A stretch of 61,095 nt of DNA from Candidatus Pacearchaeota archaeon (GTDB taxonomy: Archaea > Nanobdellota > Nanobdellia > Pacearchaeales > UBA284): positions 1 through 61,095 of the forward strand of contig JAWAPZ010000003.1 in the NCBI GenBank assembly GCA_038894195.1, given 5' to 3'. Below, in pieces: positions 18,393 to 28,433 of the stretch. The first letter of the stretch is position 1. The number at the start of each line of letters is the position of its first letter. Made by a program: the position numbers and the translations under genes. The notes under the pieces are model-generated. The model was not told the origin of the DNA. It saw only the letters and a program-made list of their open reading frames with translations, and searched no databases.

Positions 18393-19718
18393 ATGAACAA
18401 AAATTTGTTTTTAGTTTTAGCATTCGCTATTATTGCAATGCTATCAGTGACCGTGTATGCAACAGGATGGCAAGTTACTGGAACACCAGATATAAAATAT
18501 TTCTTAGTTTACGTTAACGGCGAACCAGTTTGGAAAGGAAATTGTACGGAAAACCCAGCACCAGGAATAGTAGAGAATACATGGACATGTACCACACAAC
18601 AACTTGCAGTTCCAGCAATCGAACGTGGAGAACAAGTTACTATAAAAGCGGTTTTCTTTGCAGGAAATAACTTGAACAATGTTATTGTGCACGCGTGGCT
18701 TCGAGGTTCTGGAAGAACAATTGAAGATGAAACAAGAGCTTTTGATGTTTATGCAGAAAACCAATACACAAAATGGATTTACCTAAGCATACCCGAAAAC
18801 TGGAAAACAGACGGTAAAAAAGAGTACACTTTACATGTAGAAATTGAAGGGGAAAATAGATTGACTGGTGTTAATGAAGCAGAAATTGATTTAGACGTCC
18901 AGCGCGTAGCAAATTTATTAGATATAGTAAGTATAAACCTAGAAGATAGTAATGTGAAGGCTGGCAATGCCCTTGAAGCAAGTGTTGTTGTCAAAAACAC
19001 AGGAAACCATGAACTAGAGGATGTATATGTAAAAGCAACAATCAAAGAACTTGGAATTTCAAAAACAGTTTACCTAGGCGATCTGGCAGCTTATGACAGT
19101 TGCAATGATGATTGCGACGAGGATGATACAAAAGCAGTTACAATATCCTTAATTGTGCCAAAAGAAACCCAAGCAGGGGTATACACTCTTACAGTTGAAG
19201 CTTATAACGAAGAAACAAGTTCAAAAGAAAATGTCGGATTTACTGTTGAAAGTGGTACAGTTGTTGGAAAAGTAGAGGTAACACCACAAACTACAAGAAA
19301 CAATATAATCGCGGGTGAAAGCGCAACATACAGCATTCTAGTTACAAACAATGCCGACACAACCAAAAGATTTGCAGTAGCTGTCTTTGGAACTGAAGGA
19401 TGGGCAACTTCAGAGATAATGCCTGCATCATTCAGTTTAGCTCCGGGGGAAAGCAAACTTGTAAGTATAACTTTGCACGTAGAAAAAGATGCAATAGTTG
19501 CAGAACATTTGTTTTCAGCACAAGTTAGTTATGACAATAACGAACAAAGATTCAACTTTATAGCAAATGTGACTGAAGCACAAGGGAAAGTACAACTCGG
19601 CTTGAAGGACGCTCTATTGATTGTAGGCATCATACTTGCAGCAATAATAGTTATACTTTTAATAGTTCTTTTGACAAGAAAAAGTGTAGAAGAAAAACCT
19701 GAAGAAAGCTACTACTAA
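18393..19718 (+). CDS. S-layer-like surface protein (CARDB/NEW3 Ig-like domains)
   Basis: Signal peptide, beta-sandwich repeats, C-terminal TM + EESYY tail. Confidence 0.7.
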   Translation: MNKNLFLVLAFAIIAMLSVTVYATGWQVTGTPDIKYFLVYVNGEPVWKGNCTENPAPGIVENTWTCTTQQLAVPAIERGEQVTIKAVFFAGNNLNNVIVHAWLRGSGRTIEDETRAFDVYAENQYTKWIYLSIPENWKTDGKKEYTLHVEIEGENRLTGVNEAEIDLDVQRVANLLDIVSINLEDSNVKAGNALEASVVVKNTGNHELEDVYVKATIKELGISKTVYLGDLAAYDSCNDDCDEDDTKAVTISLIVPKETQAGVYTLTVEAYNEETSSKENVGFTVESGTVVGKVEVTPQTTRNNIIAGESATYSILVTNNADTTKRFAVAVFGTEGWATSEIMPASFSLAPGESKLVSITLHVEKDAIVAEHLFSAQVSYDNNEQRFNFIANVTEAQGKVQLGLKDALLIVGIILAAIIVILLIVLLTRKSVEEKPEESYY

Positions 19719-19878: not shown

Positions 19879-22227
19879 ATGAAAAAGAAACTAAATTTTT
19901 TGTTTTTAGCATTTTTTGTACTTGCAATTATAACTATTTCAGCAACAGCCAGTGCAGAACTAACCGTAGAGACTAAACTTCAAACTAACACAGTATGCCC
20001 ATCAACAACAATACTAATAGAAGAACAAATAACCTCAAGCGTTTCTGATTCTTTTACAATAACTCTTTCTGGTTCAGCCTCTAGTTTCTCAACGGCGGTC
20101 CCTCCTGGACTTTATATAAGCACAGGACAAACAAAAAGCATTTTTGTATACATAACTCCATCTACAAGAATAAATCCCGGAACATACAATTTGGAAGTTT
20201 CGATTTCAGGAACAAGCGGTTCAAAAAGAATATTCCATGAAATAATAGTAGAAAATTGCCACAAAACAACTCTTGAGATTCGTCCTTCCCAGGACAAAAT
20301 ATGCGCATGTGAATCCAAAACCTTCGAACTATTACTGAACAATAAAGGAAGTTACCTGGAAAACTATAAAGTAAACGTAGAAGGGCCAGCAGCTCAATGG
20401 ATAACCTTATCTGGTTCAAGCTTCGCGTTACAAAAAAATTCCTCAATACCAATTTCAGCACAAATGAAAGTACCTTGTGATGTTAAAGGTAATTACCAAA
20501 CCACATTCAAAGTAACTTCGGACTCTAGATTTGCTGAAGCTCAAACAACTCTGAATATAGAAATTGTTCCTTGCTATGATTATATAATAGGTATGAAAAG
20601 TTACACTGAATTATGCGAAAATGAAAAAATTATCCTGCCAGTTACAATCAAGAATCTTGGTACAGCAGATAACATCTATGCAATAAACTTGAAAGCACCT
20701 TCTTGGGTTTTTTTGGATAGAAGAAATATAGAAGTTAACAGTGGAAAAGAAAATATCCTAAATCTCGTTGCTCAACCACCATTTAAGACGGTTGGAGAAA
20801 CTAGTGTTACAATAGAGGCCTTATCAGAAAAAGGAAAGGTTATTAGAACTGCTGAAAGTATTTTAAAGGTCAACTCTTGTTATGGTGTCACGCTGGATAT
20901 AGAAAAAGATCAAGATAAAATATGTAATGGGTTGAATAACACATATGCAATTACAATAAAAAATACTGGTAAGTTTAATGCAACTTTTAATATAGATCTC
21001 GATGCACCCGGATGGGCAAGTGTAGAAGAAAAAACTATCACTCTAGAAGCTGGGAAAGAAAAAGTATTATCGTTAGTACTAAATCCTAGTAAAGACGTGA
21101 AAGCTGCAGATTATTCTATAATAATAAGAATAAAAGATCCTACTAGCGGGATTTCAGCTGAAGACAAGTTGAGTGCCACTACAATAAGTATGGAAGATTG
21201 TTACAAGCCACTCATCTCTAGCGATAAAGACGAAATAGATATTAGTAGAGATTCCACAGGATTAGCAGCCATTACTCTTGAAAATAAAGGCACTTTAGAT
21301 GCAGAATATGTAATTGAACTTTCCGGAACTGCTGCAAGTTTCTCGCAGATAAACCCAGCAACACTCAAAATTGAAGCAGGAAAGGCGCAACCCTTGTATG
21401 TTTATCTTGCACCTTCTTTAGATGTGGCAATAGGAAGTTATACCTTAAGTGTAACAGCAAGATTAAAAGACACTACAATTATTTCATCAAAAACTTTGAA
21501 GATTAACGTGTTAAAAGAAAAAGAAATTGCAGAAACGCCAACACGAAATATAACAAATATCACAACGAACATAACCAATGTAACGCAAATAACTGGGGGG
21601 GTTGTTGAAGAAAAACCAAAAATTAACATTTTTAATAAAATAATAGAATTCTTTAAAAATTTGTTCAAAGCAAAAGCGATCAAAGAAGAAAAAATCACAG
21701 TCAACGTAACAAACCAACCACCAAAACTAAAAAAGAACATACCTGAAATTAAGTTGATAGTCGGAGAAGATTATAAGATAAACCTTTCAGAATATTTTGA
21801 AGACCCAGAACACGAAAGATTGTTCTTTACAACAATAAAACCACTCAAAATAGATGTTTCGATATATAATGATATAGTAACCCTACGTGCAAAAGAGGAA
21901 ATTGACGGCGAGCGCGATATCACTTTTTATGCTAGTGATGGGGAAAACATAGTAGAAAGTAATAAAATAAGGATAACTGTAACAAAAGCAGAAAGCGAAC
22001 AACAAGAGAAAGTTGAAAAGGAAGTTCAAAAAGGTAATGAAACGGTAGAGGTGACGGGAGCGGCAACCGAAAAACAAGAAACTAAAACAAATTTCTTTAA
22101 AACATATCAAAATTATATAATTGGAGCAATAATAATTGTGATTATAATTATAGTTTTGATGTCCGGACTTGGTAAAAAAATAGTTAAGTTCTTCGAAGAA
22201 GAAGTTCCTGAAGAGAAGAAAAAATAA
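19879..22227 (+). CDS. Large multi-Ig surface protein
   Basis: Signal peptide, repeated Cys-bounded Ig-like modules, NIT-repeat linker, C-terminal TM. Confidence 0.75.
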   Translation: MKKKLNFLFLAFFVLAIITISATASAELTVETKLQTNTVCPSTTILIEEQITSSVSDSFTITLSGSASSFSTAVPPGLYISTGQTKSIFVYITPSTRINPGTYNLEVSISGTSGSKRIFHEIIVENCHKTTLEIRPSQDKICACESKTFELLLNNKGSYLENYKVNVEGPAAQWITLSGSSFALQKNSSIPISAQMKVPCDVKGNYQTTFKVTSDSRFAEAQTTLNIEIVPCYDYIIGMKSYTELCENEKIILPVTIKNLGTADNIYAINLKAPSWVFLDRRNIEVNSGKENILNLVAQPPFKTVGETSVTIEALSEKGKVIRTAESILKVNSCYGVTLDIEKDQDKICNGLNNTYAITIKNTGKFNATFNIDLDAPGWASVEEKTITLEAGKEKVLSLVLNPSKDVKAADYSIIIRIKDPTSGISAEDKLSATTISMEDCYKPLISSDKDEIDISRDSTGLAAITLENKGTLDAEYVIELSGTAASFSQINPATLKIEAGKAQPLYVYLAPSLDVAIGSYTLSVTARLKDTTIISSKTLKINVLKEKEIAETPTRNITNITTNITNVTQITGGVVEEKPKINIFNKIIEFFKNLFKAKAIKEEKITVNVTNQPPKLKKNIPEIKLIVGEDYKINLSEYFEDPEHERLFFTTIKPLKIDVSIYNDIVTLRAKEEIDGERDITFYASDGENIVESNKIRITVTKAESEQQEKVEKEVQKGNETVEVTGAATEKQETKTNFFKTYQNYIIGAIIIVIIIIVLMSGLGKKIVKFFEEEVPEEKKK

Positions 22228-25146
22228 TTAAATTTTTAATCCAACAACCTTTGTAACTCCTTCTTGCATTGACGCACCATATAAGGTAGTTGCATTATTT
22301 ATCATTACATCGTTGTGAGTTATTATTATGTACTGTGATTTGGTGTCCTTGCTTATAAGATTAGACAATTTTTCGCTATTCCTTTTATCCAAAGCAGCAT
22401 CTATTTCATCGAAAATATAAAAATGATATGGTTTATATTTCTGTATTGCAAAAATTAAAGACAAGGCAACTATAACTTTCTCTCCACCAGATAAAGCATT
22501 AGAATCCATGTACTTCCCTTTTACCAGTTTTATTACTATATTGACGCCTCCGGCAAAAGGGTCTTCTTTATTCTCAAGTTCAAGAAAAGCAAGGCCCTTA
22601 TTACTCAACATAGCAAAGTTTTCACCGAAATATTTATTAACAGAATTAAAAGTTTGCATAAATGCCTGCTTCTTTTTTTTGTCTATTTCTGCAATTACTT
22701 TCAATATCTCTTGCTTTTCTTCATCAAGTTTTTTAACTTTTATTTCTATTTGTTCATATTCTTTTTTCAATTTTTCATATGCTTCTAATGCTCTCAAATT
22801 GACTGTTCCAAGTTCCAAAAGTTCTTTCTCATATTTTTCTAGCTTTTTTTCCAATTCTTCTATGCTCGCTTTTATAAATTCACTTCCTTCAAATTCCTTT
22901 AACTCTTCTTTTAAAGTAGAAAGTTCGGCGTCTATCCTTGCTTTATTTATTTTATATTCATTTATTTCTTGGTCCATAAGATTTTTCTGCATTTGATACT
23001 CACTGATTTTAAGATCAAGTTTGTGATTCTCCTCTTGAAGCTTCTGTTTTTCTGAAACAAGTTTTTTAAATTTTTTTTCAAGCAATTCTTGCTCTTTTTC
23101 TTTTTCTTTAAGTTGATTTTCTTTTAACCCAACTTCTTTAATGATACTATGCAGTTTTGCTTCTAATTCTAATCGATCGTGTTGTGCTTGTTTTATATTC
23201 CTCTCACATTGTTCTATTTCTCGGTAATTTAAAGTCAATTCTGTTTCAAAGTCTCTCTCTATATAAAGTTGTATTGGTTTCTTAAGTTTTATTTTTAACA
23301 AATCTTCTTTCAATTTTTCCATCCGGTTTGAAAGATCATCATGTTTCTTAGAAATTCTATCATAATCTGGTAACTCTTTTTTAATTTTGTTTATATCTTC
23401 AGTAAGAGAGTTAGACTCTAGTTCAATTTGCGAAAGTTTACTTCTATTTTGTTCAATTTGTTTTTGTTTTGATATAAATATTTTTTTTCTTTGATAAAAC
23501 TCTTCTAGCTCTTTTTCCTTTTCTATAAAATTACTTAATACCACCGCTATTTTTTCTATTTCTTTTTCAATCTCTTCTTTACTCTTTCGTTTTTCATCAA
23601 GTTCTTTTTCAATAATTTCTATAGAGCTCCAAACATCTTTCGCGAGTTTTTCTTTATATTCTTTAGTTATTTTTTGTTTGCACCTAGGACATTGCTCTAA
23701 AGAAAAAATTTCATCAACATCCTTCTTATGTATCTCCTTCTTTGTCAAAAGTTGGATTATTTCTTTTTCAATCTCTTCTTTAGTTTTTTTGATTTCACCC
23801 AATAAAGTCTCGTGATGTTTTTTTTGGGTTTTTATTTCAAGTTCGTCAATAGAACCCACATCTAAACTAGAAATTTCTTTTTCCAATTCTGTAATCTCCC
23901 TAGTAAGGTATTCTTTTTGTTTTTCTTTCTCTTCAAAAAGTGCCTGTTTTTTTTCTATTTCTGTTTTTTTAATTTCATAAATTTTCTTTTTCAATTCTAG
24001 TTCTTGTAAATCTTTTTTGATTTTTTCAATTTCTTTGTTTATAAAATCAAAATTCTCTTTTTCGTTTTTGCTTATTTTGATTTTTTCTTTTTCTTTAAGA
24101 TCCGTTATCGCTTGTTCCAACCTTTTCTTTTCTTCTATGTTGCTTTCTTCCTTTCTCAATGTACTCTCAATCTGGTCCCTTAAATTTTCTTTTTTGACGT
24201 CAAGAGTCGCAACTTCTGTCTTTAAAGCCAACAAATCTGTTCTCAATTTTTCTTGGGCTATCCCCGTCTCTTTTTCTATTCTTTTTTCAATTTCTTGTAT
24301 TCTTCTTAAATTGGATTCTATAGATTTTTTAGAAATGTCTACTAATTTTGTTATTTTTTCTATATCTTTCTGCTTATTATCTATGCTTGACCCTATCTTT
24401 TTAATTTCTTTTTCTTTGATTTCTATCTTCTTGTTTAAAACGGAAGCCTTGCAATTCTTTATTTGTTTCTTTAAATATTCATGCCTTAAAGCTTGTTTTC
24501 TCTCTTTTTCCAGATTGTTCATATACGCAGATCTCTCTCTTAAAACAGTATTTATCTCTTTTAATTTCCCTTCAGTTTTTTCAAGTTCGTTCAAAGATTT
24601 TAATTTTCTATCTTCATAAACAGAAATTCCAGCAATTTCTTCGATAATCTGTCTTTTTTCTTCTGGACGCATTTTGATTATCGTATCAATCTGTGCTTGT
24701 AAAATTATATTAAAACCTTCTGGATCGATTCCAGCTTGAGCAAGAAGATCAAGAATCTCCTGCCTTGTTTTAACTTCACCGTTTATTTTATAGATGCTTG
24801 TTCCATCTCTTCTTACCAATCTAGAAATTTCAATTTCCTCGTCAGCTAAAGAAAAAGTCTTGTCAGAATTGTCAAAAACCAAACTGACTCGTGCAGAATT
24901 TGCTGGTTTGTTTGTCTTGCCACCGTTATAAATCAAATTTGAGTGCCTTGAAGCACGCATACTTTTCGCACTTAGTCTACCTAAAACAAAACAAATAGCG
25001 TCAACAACGTTGCTTTTTCCTGAACCATTCGGACCAACAATTATATTCATGCCTCTATCAAAAACCACTTCAGTAGGTTTTGCAAATGATTTAAAACCAT
25101 GCATAAAAACTTTTTTTATATAGGGCATCTTACTCCTTTCTCTCAA
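22228..25146 (-). CDS. smc: SMC-family ATPase with zinc hook instead of hinge
   Basis: GFKSF, GPNGSGKSN, LGTVNLRALEAY, LSGGEK, FDEIDAALD; CPRC at residue 486 of 972. Confidence 0.9.
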   Translation of the reverse strand: MRERSKMPYIKKVFMHGFKSFAKPTEVVFDRGMNIIVGPNGSGKSNVVDAICFVLGRLSAKSMRASRHSNLIYNGGKTNKPANSARVSLVFDNSDKTFSLADEEIEISRLVRRDGTSIYKINGEVKTRQEILDLLAQAGIDPEGFNIILQAQIDTIIKMRPEEKRQIIEEIAGISVYEDRKLKSLNELEKTEGKLKEINTVLRERSAYMNNLEKERKQALRHEYLKKQIKNCKASVLNKKIEIKEKEIKKIGSSIDNKQKDIEKITKLVDISKKSIESNLRRIQEIEKRIEKETGIAQEKLRTDLLALKTEVATLDVKKENLRDQIESTLRKEESNIEEKKRLEQAITDLKEKEKIKISKNEKENFDFINKEIEKIKKDLQELELKKKIYEIKKTEIEKKQALFEEKEKQKEYLTREITELEKEISSLDVGSIDELEIKTQKKHHETLLGEIKKTKEEIEKEIIQLLTKKEIHKKDVDEIFSLEQCPRCKQKITKEYKEKLAKDVWSSIEIIEKELDEKRKSKEEIEKEIEKIAVVLSNFIEKEKELEEFYQRKKIFISKQKQIEQNRSKLSQIELESNSLTEDINKIKKELPDYDRISKKHDDLSNRMEKLKEDLLKIKLKKPIQLYIERDFETELTLNYREIEQCERNIKQAQHDRLELEAKLHSIIKEVGLKENQLKEKEKEQELLEKKFKKLVSEKQKLQEENHKLDLKISEYQMQKNLMDQEINEYKINKARIDAELSTLKEELKEFEGSEFIKASIEELEKKLEKYEKELLELGTVNLRALEAYEKLKKEYEQIEIKVKKLDEEKQEILKVIAEIDKKKKQAFMQTFNSVNKYFGENFAMLSNKGLAFLELENKEDPFAGGVNIVIKLVKGKYMDSNALSGGEKVIVALSLIFAIQKYKPYHFYIFDEIDAALDKRNSEKLSNLISKDTKSQYIIITHNDVMINNATTLYGASMQEGVTKVVGLKI

Positions 25147-26286: not shown

Positions 26287-27735
26287 TTTTATTTTTGCAA
26301 AAAGATTTTAAAAAAGATGGCATGATGATCTGACAATTATTCAGTTTAGTTATTTTTTTTCCACGAAGTGTATCAAGATATGTTTTATTTATTTTGTAAG
26401 GTTTAATGCACAAACTTTCATTACTAACAATTGAGTAATCAGAAGTTTTTTTATGGTTGGGAGGGTCTCTAAAAAAGGTCTGTCATTTAGATATTCTGGT
26501 TCTGCTGATCCAAAAATAACAAATCTTTTACCTTTTCCTAACGCTTGTAAAAGCTCTTCTTTATTCCAAGGCATCGGTTCTGCGACAATGCCAAAATAAT
26601 TTAAGTATACCCATTTATCAGAAGAATACATGCAGTCTTTTTCGATGTTCATAAGAACATTCTTGTACTCAAGTCTATTTGAAAAAGGAGAAATATATGA
26701 AAAAAGTACGAAAATAGAAAATAGAAAATTGGCTAGAATGATTGTAACTAGAATAATAATGATTGCCCTTCTATTTAATTTTTTTTCTAATTTCTCGAAA
26801 AAAGATGTGGAAAAAAAAGTAATTGGTAATGTCAATAAGAATAAGTAACGCGGGTTTTTCAACGGAATTCGTGAATAAAAATATAAAACCAAAAGAAAAA
26901 AAATAGACATTAGTAGTAAAGGAAAATAATCAATTTTTTTATTTTTTAAATTTTTAAAACAAATAAAAATTCCTGGAATGAAAAAAGCAAGATAGTAGTA
27001 GCTGAATGCCTGTAAGAAATGACTCAGACTGAAAGGCATAAAAAGATAATCACGGAAATAAATGTTTTGAGCATAACTATCTGCTATACTTGTTAGCAAA
27101 CTACCCGTAGCTAAAAAGTTATAAAGAAACCAAGGGGATATTATAATTATAAAAGAAACTAAAGAAGTGAAAGTTCTTTTCAACCAAGGCCTCCTGACAA
27201 AAAACAAAAACATAAAAACAAGAGAGGTGTAATGTGTTAGAAAAGCAAGCCCAACAAAAATTCCTAAAAAAATAGCACTATTCTTCTTGTCCGAAAGAGT
27301 AAAATTGATGGCAAACATTAAAAAAGTCAAATATAAAAGTTCTGTTCCAGCAGTCAAGCCAACAAGAAGCAAAAAAGGTGAAAGCAATAAACCATAAAAA
27401 ATTAAAAGATTGATTCTCAATTTTTTAGCAAGCGTCACAGAAGCGAAAAAAAATAAAAAGGAAACAAGAGCAATGTAGAGATACTCTGCTACCAAGTAAC
27501 TGCCAAAAGCAACGAAAGATAAAATTCCTATAATTAACGGGACAAGTGGGGCTCTTAACCATTCAAAATAAAATCCTCCTGAAAAGAGATATTTCGCATT
27601 TAAAACATAAACAGAAAAATCCCATCCCAGATCACGAGAATGCTGAAATATAAAAAAAGCAGTAGAAATAACAAATAAAATTAGAAGTAAAATTAAAACC
27701 TTTCTATTCATCTTTAAATTTTTGTGCATTTTCAA
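26273..27735 (-). CDS. GT-C (PMT-like) membrane glycosyltransferase, C-terminal frameshift
   Basis: WDFSVY, EWLRAPL, multi-TM; +1 A at 26446-26452 extends the ORF to overlap the next start codon. Confidence 0.75.
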
Positions 27736-27737
27736 AA

Positions 27738-28433
27738 TTAAAGAAGTTCCTCAATTTCATCCTTTGTTAGATAACCAAAAGTTTTTCCATTGATAACAAG
27801 GGAAGGAGCTTTTGTTATATTATATTTCTGTCTCAAAGCAATTGACGCAGAATTTATGGAATTTATATCAAATACCAAAATGTAAACTTTCCTTCCGGTT
27901 TTCTTTTCATTGTGATACTGGCTGACTTGATCAAGGATAAGTCCTTGGTCTTCGCTACCAGCCACGCTTCCTAGAGGGTCATTTTTCTTGTTAGTATAAA
28001 AAAATAAAATTATGTTAAAATCTTCATGACATTCTTTTTTTGTTTTTTCAAGAAGTTCAAGAATTTTAATTTCTATAAGCTCATAAATCTCCTTCTTGTT
28101 TTTAAGTTTAGGGCTGTCCTTTCCAAGTCTTTTTTCTAGAACAGTAAGCATCTGTCCTAAAGAAATTTTTTTATCCAATATATCCTGCCAGTTTGAACTG
28201 CAAAAATTTTCAATAAAATAGTCTCGAGATTCTAAAGCTAGTAGCTGTATGAGAAACATTTCTTCAGTCTCTTGAAATCTTTCAATTCTTGAAGTGGCAA
28301 GATAATTTCCTAACAGCAAGCCAAGAATAAAAATAATCATAGTTGCGATTGAAGAGGCAATTAAAAATTTATTTGATCTTTTTGTTTCTTTTCTTATTTC
28401 TATTTCTTTTTCCTTTATCTTTTTCATTCTCAT
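27738..28433 (-). CDS. Membrane-anchored protein with thioredoxin-like C-terminus
   Basis: N-terminal TM; YNITKAPSLVING. Confidence 0.6.
   Translation of the reverse strand: MRMKKIKEKEIEIRKETKRSNKFLIASSIATMIIFILGLLLGNYLATSRIERFQETEEMFLIQLLALESRDYFIENFCSSNWQDILDKKISLGQMLTVLEKRLGKDSPKLKNKKEIYELIEIKILELLEKTKKECHEDFNIILFFYTNKKNDPLGSVAGSEDQGLILDQVSQYHNEKKTGRKVYILVFDINSINSASIALRQKYNITKAPSLVINGKTFGYLTKDEIEELL

Follow-up and report, generated by a model that had tools for sequence, protein, structure and literature searches.

Can an SMC protein do without its hinge, and what would then hold its two protomers together? Canonical SMC proteins dimerise through a globular hinge, and Rad50 through a CxxC hook. 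The question is raised by the smc gene of a Candidatus Pacearchaeota archaeon (DPANN), which lies in a 61,095 bp stretch of DNA (positions 1 to 61,095 of contig JAWAPZ010000003.1, assembly GCA_038894195.1); "the window" below means this whole stretch. The source assembly comprises 535 kb in 9 contigs and is about 70% complete, and by "order", "class" and "phylum" we mean the Pacearchaeales, Nanobdellia and Nanobdellota to which the genome belongs. The smc open reading frame (ORF) occupies positions 22228–25146 of the minus strand; a plus-strand reading of this interval was rejected, as its translation is full of stops. An initial annotation, made from the sequence alone, named no strand and had given the protein 972 amino acids (aa), a reading that opens with TTG at 25146. 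The ORF span stands, and the length does not: homologues open with MPYIKK, and the ATG at 25128 has an AAGGAG 6 nt ahead of it, which makes it the likely start and gives the gene (22228..25128, minus strand) 966 codons and a stop at 22228–22230. Residue numbers below are those of the 966 aa protein unless stated otherwise.

We think it very probable that this protein is the single, genuine SMC of its cell, descended from the hinge SMC of its class, in which the ~190-residue hinge was exchanged for a CPxC hook that likely came from the lineage's own Rad50, and that it acts as a zinc-dimerised condensin of the Smc-ScpAB type. The initial annotation called it an SMC/Rad50 hybrid. The mixture of the two is upheld by what follows; as a description of the whole protein the word is less apt, and an SMC with a swapped dimerisation module is the better term.

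SMC heads and arms around a missing hinge

The heads of the protein are of the SMC type. The SMC motifs quoted in the initial annotation (GFKSF, DAICFVLG..SAKSMRA, LGTVNLRALEAY, LSGGEK and FDEIDAALD) are all present. The N-terminal half of the ATPase head (residues 1–167; 24628..25128, minus strand) contains the Walker A motif GPNGSGKS at 25012–25035 and matches the SMC_N model PF02463 with 170 bits. The C-terminal half (residues 801–966; 22231..22728, minus strand), recognised by motifs, Protein Data Bank (PDB) sequence matches and conservation, contains the signature LSGGEK (22477–22494), the Walker B motif FYIFDEID (22399–22422) and the H-loop ITHND (22309–22323), and its residues S880, G881, G882, D907, E908 and H938 are invariant in an alignment of 83 sequences. 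Pfam recognises only SMC_N and generic P-loop models in the protein. Among NCBIfam models, TIGR02169 (SMC_prok_A) scores 534.3 bits and TIGR02168 505.9 bits, as against 90 bits for the best Rad50 model (cut-offs 700–1087) and 86.6 bits for NF045487 (cut-off 300), the model of the archaea-specific SMC-related proteins (ASRP).

Structures and trees give the same assignment. The best match in a sequence search of the PDB is the Pyrococcus Smc head 5xei (E 2.8e-110), followed by bacterial Smc and eukaryotic Smc2/3/1/4; the Smc heads are found at E 1e-110 to 1e-60 and Rad50 heads only at E 1e-11. An AlphaFold2 model of the full-length protein, built on 83 homologues, has a predicted local distance difference test score (pLDDT) of 81, and its head is matched by Foldseek to the Pyrococcus SmcHead-ScpA structure 4i99 with a template modelling (TM) score of 0.92–0.93 (0.93 for the N-terminal half) and to 5xns with a TM score of 0.86. 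Two maximum-likelihood trees were built from concatenated head halves, one of them with reference loci, mostly canonical SMCs from all taxa, taken from a related-locus search with the full SMC alignment. In these trees all SMCs are split from Rad50 (ultrafast bootstrap, UFBoot, 97) by a branch of 3.1–4.6 substitutions per site, and the hook-bearing SMCs are monophyletic (UFBoot 81–85) and nested among the hinge SMCs of the same class, which include a named Woesearchaeota SMC. By bit scores (534 versus at most 90 and 87), PDB matches and trees alike, the heads group with SMC and not with Rad50 or ASRP, in agreement with the canonical heads first proposed.

The arms are likewise those of an SMC. 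The ascending coiled-coil arm (residues 168–476, ~309 aa; 23701..24627, minus strand) is defined by its AlphaFold2 helices (168–205, 216–347, 354–421 and 429–476) and by alignment to TIGR02169 and to hinge SMCs, and the descending arm (residues 489–800; 22729..23664, minus strand) by AlphaFold2 helices at 489–585, 589–615, 625–744, 756–771 and 781–841. In the model and in profile alignments the two arms, ~310 residues each, are antiparallel and collinear with the arms of hinge SMCs. When profiles of the hook SMCs and of 20 hinge SMCs are compared (hhalign E 4e-198, 35% identity), the alignment runs from end to end and is interrupted by a single large gap, over the hinge, and the matches to TIGR02169 and TIGR02168 are each split into two stretches around the missing hinge, the first TIGR02169 stretch pairing residues 9–493 with model positions 1–485.

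The hinge itself is absent. The SMC_hinge model PF06470 has no match in the protein in a Pfam scan, and the AlphaFold2 model has no globular domain at the apex, where a helix (429–476), a 12-residue loop with a beta-bridge (477–488, LEQCPRCKQKIT) and a second helix (489–585) follow one another. The initial annotation's statement that there is no hinge sequence thus holds, and extends to the predicted fold, which is helix-loop-helix only. By our reading of the alignments, a canonical hinge stretch of ~190 residues has given way to a hook replacement of ~50 residues.

A conserved CPxC apex resembling the Rad50 zinc hook

The apex loop (residues 477–488; 23665..23700, minus strand) contains the sequence CPRC at 23680–23691, at the midpoint of the protein where the initial annotation had placed it; its cysteines, C486 and C489 in the 972 aa numbering, are C480 and C483 here, and there are 5 cysteines in the whole protein. 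In the 83-sequence alignment, in which identity falls to 41%, C480, P481 and C483 are the sole invariant columns between residues 213 and 730. Homologues of ~950 aa, of which there are more than 100, all have a CPxC motif at their midpoint, again down to 41% identity. The CxxC is invariant across the family and no mere chance occurrence.

The likeness to Rad50 extends beyond the cysteines. The Rad50 hooks of the same class have the form L-x-x-CPxC-x-Q-x-V-x-x-x-H-K, and those of the hook SMCs the form L-D-x-CPLC-K-x-K-I-T-x-E-H in the same register; the family to which the window belongs retains the Rad50-type Q (CPxCKQ). A position-specific scoring matrix (PSSM) made from the flanks of Rad50 hooks, with the CPxC columns excluded, gives the SMC apices an average of +12.5 bits (z ~4.8), while 66,125 other arm positions lie at −31.5 ± 9.1, all of them short of the median apex score. 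When a 121-column profile of the SMC apex was compared with all of the PDB (177,635 sequences), the top two matches were the Pyrococcus Rad50 zinc hooks 1L8D (E 2.3e-7) and 6ZFF (E 3.4e-7), which align in register with the SMC apex through the CPxC and the T-x-E-H, and the human Rad50 hook 5GOX was next (E 0.13). Profile-profile alignment of the SMC apex with the Rad50 hooks of the class by hhalign gave a probability of 99.4%, an E of 1e-21 and a score of 118. Five other segments of the SMC arms score 16–32 against the same Rad50 profile, indicating that coiled-coil composition is not the cause of the match.

The predicted fold of the apex points the same way. Foldseek searches with the full-length model are dominated by the heads and uninformative about the apex, and a separate model of the apex only (pLDDT 92.6) was used instead. 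Its first two matches are chains A and B of 1L8D (TM 0.76–0.79, root mean square deviation 3.2–3.5 Å), and 5GOX is third. Taken with the flank scores, profiles and controls, this bears out the label "Rad50-type" that the initial annotation had attached to the CxxC.

Distribution in the order and partners in the genome

Hook SMCs are restricted to one order. Of 401 genomes of the phylum, 359 have a PF06470 hinge, in ORFs of ~1165 aa, and all 359 belong to other orders of the class; the hinge was not found in the source genome or in the 29 sampled genomes assignable to the order. Each of the other 12 hinge-negative genomes has either an SMC fragment at a contig end (3) or no SMC (9), and they were rejected as carriers of a hook SMC outside the order. 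Within the order, 148 of the 151 genomes have a single hook-type SMC; with few exceptions these align over residues 1–966 in ORFs of 950–1000 aa. More than 100 protein clusters, drawn from independent assemblies, share this architecture, and homologues are named by NCBI "Candidatus Pacearchaeota archaeon", "Nanoarchaeota archaeon" or simply "archaeon". Among the 80 related loci recovered by the search with the full SMC alignment, no hook SMC lies outside the order.

Several variants were seen in and around this distribution. Neither hinge nor CxxC is present in the ~800–810 aa SMC of some genera of the order, members of the window's own family among them (proteins P0048, P0050, P0056, P0057, P0064, P0068, P0077, P0085 and P0094, genomes G418, G427, G429, G431, G433, G436, G437, G442 and G404). 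These align to residues 1 to ~380 and ~520 to 966 of our protein, have an unrelated helical apex of ~100 residues, are the sole SMC of their genomes and nest inside the hook clade in the head tree; from this position it seems that they have lost the hook or undergone a second replacement of the apex. Several hook SMCs have an insert of ~520 residues directly after the Walker A motif (GSGKS|C...HN|S), namely P0013 (1490 aa), the loci L021, L023 and L026 and those of about ten more genomes with ORFs of ~1490–1516 aa; it matches the Pfam intein_splicing and LAGLIDADG models and has the appearance of an intein inserted into the SMC P-loop. Nine near-complete genomes from other orders of the class (G059, G186, G248, G253, G255, G273, G316, G345 and G370), several of them single contigs of 500–800 kb, have no detectable SMC, hinge or hook, and G059 has no Rad50 either. 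Two further SMC homologues from other taxa, L136 (a 779 aa ORF of an uncultured bacterium) and L100 (partial, Nanoarchaeota archaeon), show no central CxxC and no hinge by a class-specific hidden Markov model (HMM), a weak negative since this HMM also missed some actinobacterial hinges.

The partners expected of an SMC are encoded in the source genome, as is a complete Mre11-Rad50 pair. ScpA (274 aa; PF02616, 42–43 bits) and ScpB (196 aa; PF04079, 110 bits; TIGR00281, 93 bits and over its cut-off) are both encoded on contig 1, with ~2 kb between them. An operon on contig 6 encodes Mre11 (417 aa) and a 676 aa Rad50 that has a hook of its own (SVCPTCQQKVSDSYK), which shows that the hook SMC is not the cell's Rad50. 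A search for ScpA and a separate Rad50 had been proposed in the initial annotation; the hook SMC thus co-occurs with ScpA, ScpB and a separate Mre11-Rad50. Beyond the source genome, ScpA is retained in 96 of 101 genomes of the order, ScpB having been looked for in the source genome only, and Rad50 in 119 of 121 genomes of the phylum. In the contig 6 operon (L009:3833-7113, minus strand) the rad50 start overlaps the mre11 end by 4 nt, and the Rad50 is short by comparison with archaeal models of ~880 aa; within the class Rad50 is most often ~680–700 aa long, with ~810–840 aa in other families.

The neighbours of smc are genes for Ig-like (immunoglobulin-like) surface proteins, an EamA transporter fragment and glycosyltransferases; as the initial annotation had noted, scpA, scpB and mre11 are not adjacent, and there is no nuclease or defence gene among these neighbours. 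Two adjacent ORFs on the plus strand, 18393–19718 (441 aa) and 19879–22227 (782 aa), have weak Ig-like or NPCBM-associated matches only and probably encode surface or S-layer-type proteins; the second is convergent with smc, and its end directly abuts the smc stop. Two minus-strand ORFs between the glycosyltransferase genes, 26389–27735 (448 aa) and 27738–28433 (231 aa), have no Pfam match at E ≤ 0.001.

Proposed mechanism, alternatives and meaning

By analogy with Rad50, two protomers would each contribute two cysteines to one shared zinc ion, and the hooks bridged in this way would hold the arm tips together permanently, providing the constitutive apex dimer otherwise given by the hinge. The SMC heads, the ~310-residue arms, the kleisin ScpA and ScpB could then form the usual Smc-ScpAB ring or rod, which would organise and segregate the chromosome. 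Recombination with the lineage's own Rad50 is the most likely source of the hook. That the protein binds zinc, homodimerises through its hook and works like a condensin, and that the hook came from Rad50, is what we infer, and a hook-based dimer has a precedent in Bacillus subtilis Smc(Zh), in which the hinge was swapped for a Pyrococcus Rad50 hook with near-normal arm alignment and normal growth (Buermann et al. 2017, Mol Cell 65:861; PMC5344682). The function of that chimera was still dependent on arm length (PMC5344682), and further engineered hook/hinge swaps were reported by Tatebe et al. 2020 (PMC6969161). The implication drawn in the initial annotation, that a hinge is dispensable for chromosome organisation, is plausible.

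Several observations weigh against this reading. The TIGR02169 and TIGR02168 scores are below the curated cut-offs (534.3 versus 729.4 and 505.9 versus 567.35), which for TIGR02169 we ascribe to the missing hinge. With a source genome only ~70% complete, a second SMC might be present there, although its high-quality relatives have one copy and no hinge. The Foldseek E for 1L8D is weak (0.011), as expected of a helical hairpin, and the Rad50_zn_hook model PF04423 does not match the apex at E ≤ 10; since it also misses the genome's own Rad50, this model is evidently insensitive here. Finally, the argument for a Rad50 origin is built on ~30 in-register residues, a similarity that convergence might also produce.

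Convergence would leave the SMC and its function as described: the CPxC apex would have arisen afresh after deletion of the hinge and come to resemble a Rad50 hook through the constraints of the fold. The shared signature (L-x-x-CPxC-x-x-x-[IV]-x-x-x-H-K) is indeed short, the failure of PF04423 fits such an origin, and most hook SMCs have S or T, two residues past the second cysteine, where Rad50 hooks have an invariant Q. We nevertheless regard it as unlikely, given that the in-register similarity continues past the CPxC and holds with those columns excluded, that the hhalign match is far stronger than those of the arm controls, that a Rad50 hook is the best sequence match to the apex in the whole PDB, that the window's own family keeps the Q, and that a donor Rad50 is available nearly throughout the phylum; a Rad50 origin is the more economical explanation of the apex similarity. 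A greater departure would be an SMC-derived protein with a new role, as a DNA tether or a repair or defence factor (Rad50-, ASRP/ClsN-, Lamassu- or Wadjet-like) instead of a Smc-ScpAB condensin. The other known hook-bearing proteins are all of the Rad50/SbcC and ASRP types (PMC9389158), smc is unlinked to scpA/scpB in the source genome, and two PADLOC models match the C-terminal head (window 22231–23200), mad3 with 177 bits and LmuB with up to 88 bits. These PADLOC matches are generic head matches far below the TIGR02169 match, and in the lack of any defence context a defence-system reading was rejected. The hook SMC is moreover single-copy and near-universal in an order that has no other SMC for housekeeping and that retains ScpA (with ScpB in the source genome), its arms are of full SMC length and collinear with those of hinge SMCs, and no nuclease or defence gene is near it, so that a new role appears distinctly improbable. 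We note that defence-system scans may flag this housekeeping protein as a false positive.

It is hardly credible that the protein is a Rad50 or ASRP paralogue, or an artefact of assembly or annotation such as a truncated SMC. Its 966 aa and central CxxC do resemble Rad50, and its TIGR02169 score is under the cut-off, but the head scores, structure matches and trees all give SMC, the genome has a separate Mre11-Rad50 operon, and 148 genomes and over 100 protein clusters, drawn from independent assemblies, have this architecture.

The preferred reading, an SMC with a Rad50-like hook in place of its hinge, can be set beside known systems. With the Smc of Smc-ScpAB (TIGR02169; Pyrococcus structures 5XEI, 5XNS and 4I99) our protein shares head motifs and fold, collinear ~310-residue arms, ScpA and ScpB in the genome, single copy and a tree position inside the Nanoarchaeota SMCs; it differs in lacking PF06470, with ~190 residues exchanged for a CPxC hook module, in being ~200 aa shorter and in scoring under the TIGR02169 cut-off. 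The Rad50 zinc hook (1L8D and 6ZFF of Pyrococcus furiosus; 5GOX of human) is its best PDB match at the apex by sequence and fold, and in both an antiparallel coiled coil is capped by a CPxC with in-register flanks (L-x-x-CPxC-x-x-x-[IV]-x-x-E-H-K); unlike Rad50, whose Mre11/SbcD nuclease partner is usually encoded in the same operon, it has SMC heads, SMC-length arms and no adjacent Mre11, Rad50 being a separate protein of the same cell. The archaea-specific SMC-related proteins ASRP, ClsN (coalescin) and Sph1-2 are hook-bearing and not SMC orthologues (PMC9389158). They too are archaeal, with SMC-superfamily heads and an apex zinc-hook motif, but ASRP has ~600 aa and divergent heads and is not known as a ScpA partner, whereas the 966 aa protein is orthologous to bona fide SMC. 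The "hinge-less" SMC variants of marine Actinobacteria (Sussfeld et al. 2025, PMC12153180) share SMC-type heads and arms and the lack of a hinge; they are bacterial, have no CxxC hook and resemble the ~800 aa hook-less forms of the order. Closest in design is the Smc(Zh) chimera, likewise an Smc with a Rad50 zinc hook for a hinge, which is a laboratory construct, whereas the present protein is natural, fixed in an archaeal order and kept down to ~41% identity.

No published description of a natural hook-bearing SMC was found in a full-text literature search; in the literature found, the hinge-to-hook swap is described only as a laboratory chimera, and here it is natural and order-wide. A survey of archaeal SMCs (PMC8665677) does not mention zinc or a hook, and the SMC survey of Buermann et al. 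(PMC5344682) was seeded with hinge sequences and by our reading would therefore miss hook SMCs. More generally, hinge-seeded searches and annotation by the TIGR02169 cut-off may under-call or misname such proteins.

A bolder reading joins several of these observations, and we offer it as a speculation that is probably wrong in its full form: an order-wide hinge-less SMC with a module from the lineage's own Rad50, mixed SMC/Rad50 hook pairs, and a swappable apex. Since both hooks share one in-register signature, mixed zinc-bridged SMC-Rad50 pairs, or bridged complexes, might form. If so, mixed pairing would couple loop extrusion physically to double-strand-break repair, and SMC dimerisation would become zinc-dependent. 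In this reading the apex also behaves as an exchangeable cassette, of which the helical tip of the ~800 aa SMCs of the order would be a third kind.

The role of the SMC hinge has been debated for two decades, as a DNA entry gate, a DNA-binding site in loop extrusion and a partner of the heads and kleisin. In the literature found, evidence that it is dispensable comes from the engineered B. subtilis chimera only. A natural hook SMC, fixed and diversified across an order, would mean that evolution ran the chimera experiment and kept the outcome. It provides many natural sequences with which to probe the essential functions of the hinge and how arm geometry is coupled to a different tip, and hook SMCs can show whether dimerisation turns zinc-dependent or becomes open to pairing with other hooks.

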